64,000 bases of DNA from Alphaproteobacteria bacterium (GTDB taxonomy: Bacteria > Pseudomonadota > Alphaproteobacteria > UBA7887), in contig JASLYQ010000008.1 of NCBI GenBank assembly GCA_030739735.1, positions 29,747-93,746 of the forward strand. Direction: 5' to 3'. Positions 46,013-46,828 of this stretch are shown piece after piece. The notes beneath the pieces are model-generated. The model was not told where the DNA came from and searched no databases. It saw only the letters and a list, made by a program, of their open reading frames with translations. Position 1 is the first letter of the stretch. Each line of letters opens with the position of its first letter. Position numbers and translations under genes: made by a program.

Positions 46013-46828
46013 GCCGATACGCGCGTCGCTCAGCGGTCCCCGGCGGCGGCAGCTACGCCACGTAATGGCCGGCCGTGGCGGCGTCCAGGCACAGCTCGAC
46101 GCGGTGATGCGGCTGATCCACCGCGAACATGGTGGCTGAAGTCTGCTCCTGCTACCTCTTGCGCACTGGATAGGTCCTGGAGCTGTTCGCCAACCAAGGC
46201 CTCAACCCGAACGCGGTGCACAACACACGCCTGCAGGTCAACGAAGGCCTAGTCGGCCACGTTGCCGCCAGCGGCCGCTCTTTGTTTGAGCCTCAACGAT
46301 ACCCAGGCACCTCATGGTCTTGACCCGTGGACAGTTTTGCCACGCTCGCGACATGCTACGGCACGGGCGCGAGATAGCCCTGAGAGTGGGCGAGATACGG
46401 CCTCGGGACTTGCATATAGGCGCTATGTTGGAGGTATTCGCTTTGCTCTGGCAACTGCCAAATCTACAATCTAAAGTTGATATACTTTCTGCTAAAACTA
46501 GTAATTTAGTGTAATTTCTTTTTGCCAACAGCCATGAAAACACTAGACCCTTAAGGGGTTACGAAATTTTAACGTGACCGGCACTTAATTCGATAGGAAA
46601 TCTATGGCAAGCCTGGCACGAGGCCGAAGTACCCCTTACAGTTTGCGGCGAGGATGCCGGACAGCCGCTTGACGCCATGGCGCTAATCGGCTCTGAAAAC
46701 CGCAATTTGTCGATGGCGCCGTGGCGCCCTCGGCCGACCGTCTTGGCACGCTCTGCGAGCGTGCCAAGGTAAACCTATGCGACAACCTCTCGGCCTTTGC
46801 CAAGAATCATGATACCAGGATCGGTTAA
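46013..46828 (+). pseudogene. ptsP: PTS-Ntr enzyme I (PtsP) pseudogene: GAF fragment joined to C-terminal PEP-binding fragment
   Basis: Hand translation gives MVAEVCSCYLLRTG*VLELFANQGLNPNAVHNTRLQVNEGLVG (TAG 46171-46173), then GAMLEVFALLWQLP..VDILSAKTSNLV*FLFA...T*P...VPLTVCGEDAGQPLDAMALIG..NLSMAP (TAA 46512, TGA 46575), ending AFAKNHDTRIG* at 46828; lies at the usual ptsP position before rodZ. Confidence 0.92.

Follow-up and report, generated by a model that had tools for sequence, protein, structure and literature searches.

Loss of the nitrogen-PTS Enzyme I gene ptsP, with retention of a second Enzyme I, in a pelagic marine alphaproteobacterium

What does the 1-kb gap between two intact genes of this alphaproteobacterial genome contain, and was signalling between carbon and nitrogen metabolism given up with it? 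The window, the whole 64,000-nt stretch of DNA that was analysed (G000:C68:29747-93746), belongs to a 2.64-Mb draft genome of 69 contigs, here designated as G000 (98.8% complete, 61.4% GC). The gap had been read in an earlier note as ptsP, the gene of the nitrogen-PTS Enzyme I (EI-Ntr), still at its original site but wrecked by a large internal deletion, stop codons, frameshifts and drift towards AT. Synteny, tblastn and DNA alignments all agreed with that reading.

The gene order was ubiG-like methyltransferase (minus strand), lysC (aspartokinase), a nitronate-monooxygenase-family gene (NMO), the gap, a RodZ-like HTH gene, ispG, and prfA; the gap between the NMO gene and the RodZ-like gene covered 46013-47018. 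Alphaproteobacterial ptsP lies downstream of lysC/ask (2026 review, PMC13104625); by this neighbourhood rule, the gap is therefore the expected ptsP site. In the congeners G001 and G002, NMO, an intact 755-aa ptsP and the RodZ-like gene were found in the same order, and the spacing between the NMO stop and the ptsP start in the congeners was 4 nt. A tblastn search with G002 PtsP against the window matched an N part ending at 46284 (55% identity, 110 aa) and a C part at 46314-46793 (55% identity, 162 aa; E values in Table 1). In a whole-genome search, the GAF core was 85% identical to that of G002 PtsP across 54 aa. Of the 2,268-nt ptsP, 812 nt (46017-46828) was left, corresponding to ancestral codons 1-103 and about 570-755, which matches the earlier description of about 100 GAF codons joined to a C-terminal remnant.

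The lesions were mapped by separate DNA alignments of the N part and the C part, because a global MAFFT alignment of the whole gap misplaced the N part; a pairwise alignment with a near-zero gap-extension penalty was discarded for its spurious small blocks. All positions given previously fell within a few bases of the aligned ones (Table 1). The frameshifts noted near 46128 and 46285 were the +1 indel and the 4-nt insertion, the three internal stop codons were all in frame, the join near 46310 was the deletion junction, the missing 1.4 kb measured 1,398 nt, and the "late frameshift" was the 44-nt deletion. Small indels were also found directly after the deletion junction. Both intact congener genes carried the sequence ATGTTC twice, at codons 102-103 and 568-569. 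Given these repeats at both ends, the large deletion apparently arose by slippage or microhomology-mediated loss between them, a breakpoint inferred across a junction that has since mutated.

Table 1. Positions of the ptsP remnant, its lesions, its flanks and the second Enzyme I gene of G000 (window coordinates unless a contig is named).
Feature	Position	Strand	Evidence
NMO, intact nitronate-monooxygenase-family gene, 349 aa, upstream flank	44963..46012	+	Pfam NMO 175.8 bits; 82.3% nt identity to G002; dN/dS about 0.14
N-terminal ptsP remnant, ancestral codons 1-103 (most of GAF core); lost start, -6, +1, TAG, +4, -2	46017..46316	+	DNA alignment; 82.7% nt identity to G002; tblastn E=1e-22
Former start codon, ATG>ATA	46017..46019	+	DNA alignment
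-6 nt indel	after 46045	+	DNA alignment
+1 nt indel	about 46118-46127	+	DNA alignment
In-frame TAG (ancestral CAG/CAA, Gln)	46171..46173	+	DNA alignment
4-nt insertion TTTG, tandem duplication, shifts the frame	46281..46284	+	DNA alignment
-2 nt indel	about 46307	+	DNA alignment
Junction of the 1,398-nt (466-codon) internal deletion; reads ATGGTC, corresponding to ATGTTC	46311..46316	+	DNA alignments; probable breakpoint
C-terminal ptsP remnant, ancestral codons about 570-755 (last part of PEP-binding barrel); TAA, TGA, small indels, 44-nt deletion	46317..46828	+	PF02896 49.4 bits; tblastn E=2e-38; 66.5% nt identity to G002
In-frame TAA (ancestral CAA; TGG in a co-occurring relative)	46512..46514	+	DNA alignment
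In-frame TGA	46575..46577	+	DNA alignment
G000-specific 44-nt deletion; GCCG repeat flanks the undeleted form; 44 nt still in sister lineages	46717..46718	+	DNA alignments
Perfect 12-bp inverted repeat with 3-nt loop, CTTGGCACGCTC tgc GAGCGTGCCAAG; shared with L118	46742..46768	+	Repeat scan and alignment
TAA at the ancestral ptsP stop position	46826..46828	+	DNA alignment
Conserved ptsP-rodZ intergenic region, CTTGCCTAATTGAAGG...CAAATTTGTTTTA...GGTGATGCGGGGAGC	46829..47018	+	Conserved with G002; 92% identical to L118
RodZ-like HTH gene, intact, downstream flank; followed by ispG, prfA	47019..48161	+	Pfam HTH_25, RodZ_C
ptsI, intact frame, 591-aa GAF-less PtsI-type Enzyme I	G000:C67:34986-36761		TIGR01417 501.7 bits (cut-off 341.7)

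The remnant shared its gene family and its place downstream of lysC/ask with the PtsP/EI-Ntr of Caulobacter crescentus, Sinorhizobium meliloti, and Brucella melitensis (PMC13104625), and still contained most of the GAF core (MVAEVCSCYLL...NEGLVGHVAASGRSL) as well as GAMLEV, LWQL and VCGE.AGQP, motifs of the C-terminal barrel. Unlike those proteins, it had no start codon, three stops and several frameshifts, and 64% of the length was gone. The surviving GAF stretch was of PtsP type yet incomplete, and was broken by a frameshift and the TAG. The Enzyme I N-terminal (HPr-binding) domain and the phospho-His swivel domain were lost with ancestral codons about 104-567; the phospho-His domain, previously reported as gone, was entirely missing. 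The PF02896 match covered only positions 143-278 of 293, with one TGA and one TAA inside, and the NF008283 (PtsP/EI-Ntr) match covered only profile positions 575-692. On these matches, the remnant is classed as a pseudogene of the PtsP family NF008283 and not as a member. No second ptsP was found elsewhere in the 98.8%-complete genome. What is expected of a unitary pseudogene was found here: the orthologous position with similarity, lesions that recur in independent data, and relaxed selection.

The AT enrichment described earlier was real. The GC content of the remnant was 56.9% (N part, 65.0%; C part, 52.1%; minimum, 47% in 46350-46649), compared with 61.4% for the genome and 66% for G002 ptsP, the homologous parts of which had 71.5% (N) and 61.6% (C). 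At sites where G001 and G002 were the same, G000 had 98 GC>AT changes and 30 AT>GC changes in the remnant; the intact NMO neighbour had 80 and 22, respectively, and its GC3 was 73% vs 83% in G002. Since the AT-ward bias was also found in the intact NMO, the drift is a genome-wide bias of the lineage that is stronger in unconstrained DNA.

The substitution divergence of the remnant from its orthologue was 28%, and the codon-position bias was largely lost: G000 differed from G002 at 23%, 22%, and 38% of codon positions 1, 2, and 3 in the remnant, and at 11%, 6%, and 36% in NMO. A three-point estimate for the G000 branch of ptsP gave dN=0.221 and dS=0.569 (omega 0.39), compared with an omega of 0.11 for the congeners G001/G002, which showed that selection on the G000 branch is relaxed. 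With omega assumed to be 0.11 while the gene was functional and 1 after its death, the pseudogene phase took up roughly 30% of the G000 branch (~0.18 neutral substitutions per site), a rough figure that comes from NG86 estimates on 257 codons, some of them poorly aligned. A later death of the N part than of the C part (17% vs 33% divergence) was considered and rejected; the intact genes of G001/G002 showed 8% vs 16%, the same two-fold difference, so it reflects a regional rate and not different death times. Between the intact G001/G002 genes, synonymous change in the 3' part ran at twice the pace of the 5' part (dS 0.64 in the 3' 560 nt, 0.26 in the 5' 300 nt).

The region 45800-47200 was present in at least 20 runs of marine/seawater metagenomes, which came from nine or more studies dated 2014-2025. 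Four runs, each of a different study and together spanning 2014-2025 (X1, X4, X9, and X13), had a single contig that covered all 1,401 bases with 0 differences and 0 gaps; in four further runs, the main contigs were identical over the stretches covered, for a total of eight runs from eight studies. The lesions were thereby recovered in independent assemblies, and the pseudogene has reached fixation in the main population of this pelagic marine alphaproteobacterium, whose genome is reduced. The host-associated niche that had been proposed finds no support in this distribution; a nutritionally steady pelagic niche is possible, and nothing here points to a host. No site differed within the main population across these 1.4 kb, of which 0.8 kb evolves neutrally, indicating very low within-population diversity.

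A search at 85% likeness showed minor relatives co-occurring in three runs (X8, X19, and X20). At least two co-occurring relatives, 90-96% identical and at 10-65% of the depth of the main contig, were in different decay states. One sister type joined 46016 to about 46632. Its representative L118, a 3.5-kb JGI metagenome contig (Ga0187833_10036652), had no counterpart of 46017-46577, a further 560 nt gone, retained the 44 nt deleted in G000, and carried a +1 frameshift of its own in the CGE active-site region. Its identity to the window was 95.4% in NMO, 93.5% in rodZ, and only 90.8% in the shared remnant (46578-46828), a divergence of 9.2% vs 4.6-6.5% in the flanking genes. A second type of relative, about 90% identical over 46427-46721, had TGG at the position of the TAA at 46512 and also kept the 44 nt. 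The faster divergence of the remnant than of its flanks, together with the independent losses of 560 nt and 44 nt, indicates that the gene would have been dead before the lineages split. On the most economical reading, ptsP would have died in the common ancestor and then been removed piecemeal, independently in each lineage.

Expression and possible signals were analysed across the remnant and the region downstream. In four metatranscriptomes, contigs on lysC and NMO extended as far as about 46112 and those on the RodZ-like gene started at about 46908-46957, with none over 46148-46907; contigs cannot prove absence, and this gap is consistent with a silent remnant. The RNA contigs began inside the conserved ptsP-rodZ intergenic region, which probably serves rodZ-ispG-prfA downstream as promoter or leader. 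An Rfam search at a permissive threshold gave no credible match, including in this intergenic region. The scan of the remnant revealed no promoter-like sites and one weak terminator-like site, vs 1.3 expected by chance, and the repeat search revealed no mobile-element traces. The hairpin near the 3' end of the remnant was of a rare kind (about 5 sites in 580 kb scanned) and was followed by no T-tract. G001/G002 had no palindrome at its position and would need about 8 substitutions to gain one; the hairpin may be a template-switch mutation in unconstrained DNA.

The supposition of no other general Enzyme I was not supported. A PEP-binding-domain search of G000 found two further genes besides the remnant, one of which was the intact ptsI (Table 1), an observation that the earlier note had itself named as one that would refute it. 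PtsI matched PEP-utilisers_N, PEP-utilizers and PEP-utilizers_C, and carried the phospho-His motif GGPQGHTAIMARS and the catalytic Cys motif LCGEIAGE. The gene overlapped the 3' end of the sole HPr gene by 11 nt in the order gpsA-ptsH-ptsI-ahcY on contig C67. PtsI was as long as its G001 counterpart, no indel occurred across 2 kb, and dN/dS was 0.11 for PtsI and 0.20 for HPr; ptsI is under purifying selection. PtsI shared just 38% identity with the Enzyme I portion of PtsP and is therefore an ancient paralogue rather than a displaced fragment of ptsP. The other PEP-binding gene (921 aa, contig C55) was pyruvate-phosphate-dikinase-like. A weak EI-like match in the congener G003 (contig C444) was considered as a second remnant and rejected, since it was the C-terminus of a pyruvate-phosphate-dikinase-like gene.

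The claim that C/N-balance signalling had been abandoned was not supported either. The cluster rpoN-hpf-ptsN-hprK-rapZ-manX was intact on a separate contig (G000:C23:10392-15524), so that PtsN, HprK, RapZ and EIIA-Man were all present, the phospho-acceptor His motifs of PtsN (GIAIPHARL) and ManX (VTHG) were preserved, and SpoT/Rel, GlnD and two PII proteins were intact. G000 and 12 relatives were searched for permeases of the common PTS_EIIC family and had none, and the PTS of G000 looks purely regulatory. Brucella has a permease-less regulatory PTS of EI-Ntr, NPr, EIIA-Ntr, EIIA-Man, and HprK (PMC2937029); G000 likewise had PtsN, a short HprK, EIIA-Man, a single HPr and no PTS_EIIC permease, and its HPr gene lay near the S-adenosylhomocysteinase gene as in Brucella. 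The two systems differed in the entry enzyme, which in G000 was the GAF-less PtsI-type Enzyme I instead of EI-Ntr, and in the presence of rapZ between hprK and manX. In this genus, ptsH-ptsI was not located behind the rpoN-hpf-ptsN-hprK-rapZ-manX cluster; a fused SoxY-SoxZ-like gene (266 aa) followed manX instead. In the betaproteobacterium Cupriavidus necator (Ralstonia eutropha) H16, ptsM-ptsH-ptsI encodes a mannose-type EIIA, HPr and a GAF-less Enzyme I that serve regulation rather than sugar uptake. That system coexists with PtsN and an intact PtsP, whereas G000 keeps the PtsI branch only.

An Enzyme I survey of 41 genomes of the class showed PtsP together with PtsI in the congeners G001-G003, PtsP only in several genera of the family, no Enzyme I in two genera of the family (8 genomes), and PtsI-type only in G029, G030, G039, and G040, which belong to other families and have genomes of 1.6-2.3 Mb. 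HPr genes numbered at most one per genome, with one in G000 and in each congener, and HPr was present exactly where some Enzyme I was present (25 genomes: 20 with both, 5 with neither). Several relatives from other genera of the family had ptsH-ptsI directly after ptsN-hprK...manX on one contig (e.g., G006:C60). The genome size was 2.64 Mb for G000 vs 3.6-4.6 Mb for the congeners. The co-occurrence of Enzyme I and HPr fits PtsI-HPr as a putative working pair, with G000 possibly entering a state that is fixed elsewhere. Five genomes (G004, G010, G011, G014, and G028) had no Enzyme I, HPr or HprK, yet PtsN was kept, with a reduced Pfam score (54-56 bits) in G004 and G011. Judged by gene content, the PtsN of these five is a predicted orphan EIIA-Ntr that could not be phosphorylated by a PTS.

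Taken as a whole, the locus is best explained, with a probability of about 0.7, as an old and genuine ptsP pseudogene whose loss was allowed by redundancy with PtsI, the relay being kept under selection and the GAF input being lost. The genus has two Enzyme I paralogues, a GAF-bearing PtsP and a GAF-less PtsI. As there is a single HPr gene, both presumably phosphorylated that one HPr, from which EIIA-Ntr (PtsN) and EIIA-Man would then be supplied; with a relay that could be entered at two points, ptsP would be dispensable, and it was probably redundant. PtsI is predicted to transfer the phosphoryl group from PEP to HPr, from its overlap with ptsH and from the Enzyme I/HPr co-occurrence in 25 genomes, and HPr would in turn pass it to PtsN. 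Once inactivated, ptsP would have been eroded by the 1.4-kb deletion between the ATGTTC repeats, by small indels and by AT-biased substitutions, an order of lesions that we infer, and the components of the relay PEP > PtsI > HPr > PtsN/ManX are retained under purifying selection.

Glutamine inhibits and 2-oxoglutarate stimulates the autophosphorylation of EI-Ntr through the GAF domain (PMC4848567, PMC13104625). Only this glutamine/2-oxoglutarate input to the regulatory PTS was probably lost; PEP/pyruvate and HprK would then determine how far the relay is phosphorylated, and nitrogen status would still be sensed via GlnD-PII. Two Enzyme I branches can cross-talk: phosphate of the non-Ntr branch can reach PtsN in E. 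coli (EI/EI-Ntr) and in Pseudomonas (FruB>PtsN), which is the step needed here (PMC4848567, PMC13104625). Those bacteria have a separate HPr-like carrier for each branch, whereas the single shared HPr of G000 would need no carrier cross-talk. Against this explanation, ptsH-ptsI lies apart from ptsN-hprK-rapZ-manX in this genus but forms one cluster with it in other genera, the partner of PtsI could be another permease family or a DhaM-type system, and the persistence of PtsN in family genomes with neither Enzyme I nor HPr means that PtsN can be retained without phosphorylation.

Other explanations were weighed for the remnant itself. In a metagenome-assembled draft of 69 contigs, the lesions might be suspected of being assembly or sequencing errors, or of being private to one strain; however, contigs assembled independently from eight runs of eight studies were identical over the stretches covered, one contig spanned the whole 1,401 bases in four of these runs, and more than ten lesions came with 28% substitution divergence from the orthologue, so that the chance of an artefact is negligible. 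It is highly improbable that the remnant escaped deletion because it was reused as a regulatory RNA, a small peptide or the promoter of rodZ-ispG-prfA. The survival of the 3' 250 nt in both G000 and L118 would suit such a use, as would the perfect 12-bp hairpin of rare type that arose in the remnant and is common to both. However, the shared part diverges faster (9.2%) than its flanks (4.6-6.5%), the 560 nt was dispensable in the sister lineage, no Rfam match or promoter-like site was found and terminator-like sites were at chance level, and no RNA contig lay over 46148-46907 in the four runs that covered both neighbours.

Two further explanations concern the signalling. That no Enzyme I is left, and that PTS-Ntr and C/N-balance signalling were abandoned as in a host-associated organism, would agree with a dead ptsP that has no second copy, with the reduction from 3.6-4.6 Mb to 2.64 Mb, and with EI-Ntr as the sole Enzyme I of model alphaproteobacteria (PMC2937029). 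It is very unlikely nonetheless: the intact ptsI by itself refutes it, ptsI-ptsH is under selection, ptsN, hprK, rapZ, manX, spoT, glnD and the two PII genes are intact, and seawater metagenomes from nine or more studies contain the organism. A minority chance is left for a relay to PtsN that is broken in practice, with PtsI-HPr serving another task and PtsN/ManX acting only in unphosphorylated form. Five related genomes do keep PtsN without Enzyme I, HPr or HprK, and ptsH-ptsI is unlinked to ptsN-hprK-rapZ-manX in this genus; but there is a single HPr gene, HprK (for which HPr is the only substrate known) is still encoded beside ptsN, no permease of the PTS_EIIC family was found for PtsI-HPr to serve, and the His motifs of PtsN and ManX are intact.

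These results showed ordinary gene loss in the reductive evolution of a streamlined marine bacterium, and not the end of C/N signalling. More tentatively, and with rather less than even odds, the clade may be regarded as a rewiring experiment: streamlining would repeatedly discard the nitrogen-sensing Enzyme I where two Enzyme I feed one HPr, the process being in progress here and at its end state in several small-genome families, so that the "nitrogen PTS" becomes a PEP/pyruvate gauge and the co-occurring sisters keep successive stages of decay. The pseudogenes form a datable decay series, with ~0.18 neutral substitutions accumulated per site and independent losses of 44 nt and 560 nt, from which deletion rates in free-living marine bacteria could be measured. 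The finding corrects the assumption of EI-Ntr as the sole alphaproteobacterial Enzyme I, since a GAF-less PtsI stands beside HPr in many lineages, often inside the ptsN-hprK-manX cluster. It also suggests that, in the open ocean, the regulatory PTS can do without its glutamine/2-oxoglutarate input while the relay itself is kept. If the rewiring is true, the "nitrogen PTS" would serve abundant pelagic bacteria purely as a PEP/pyruvate (carbon and energy) gauge.
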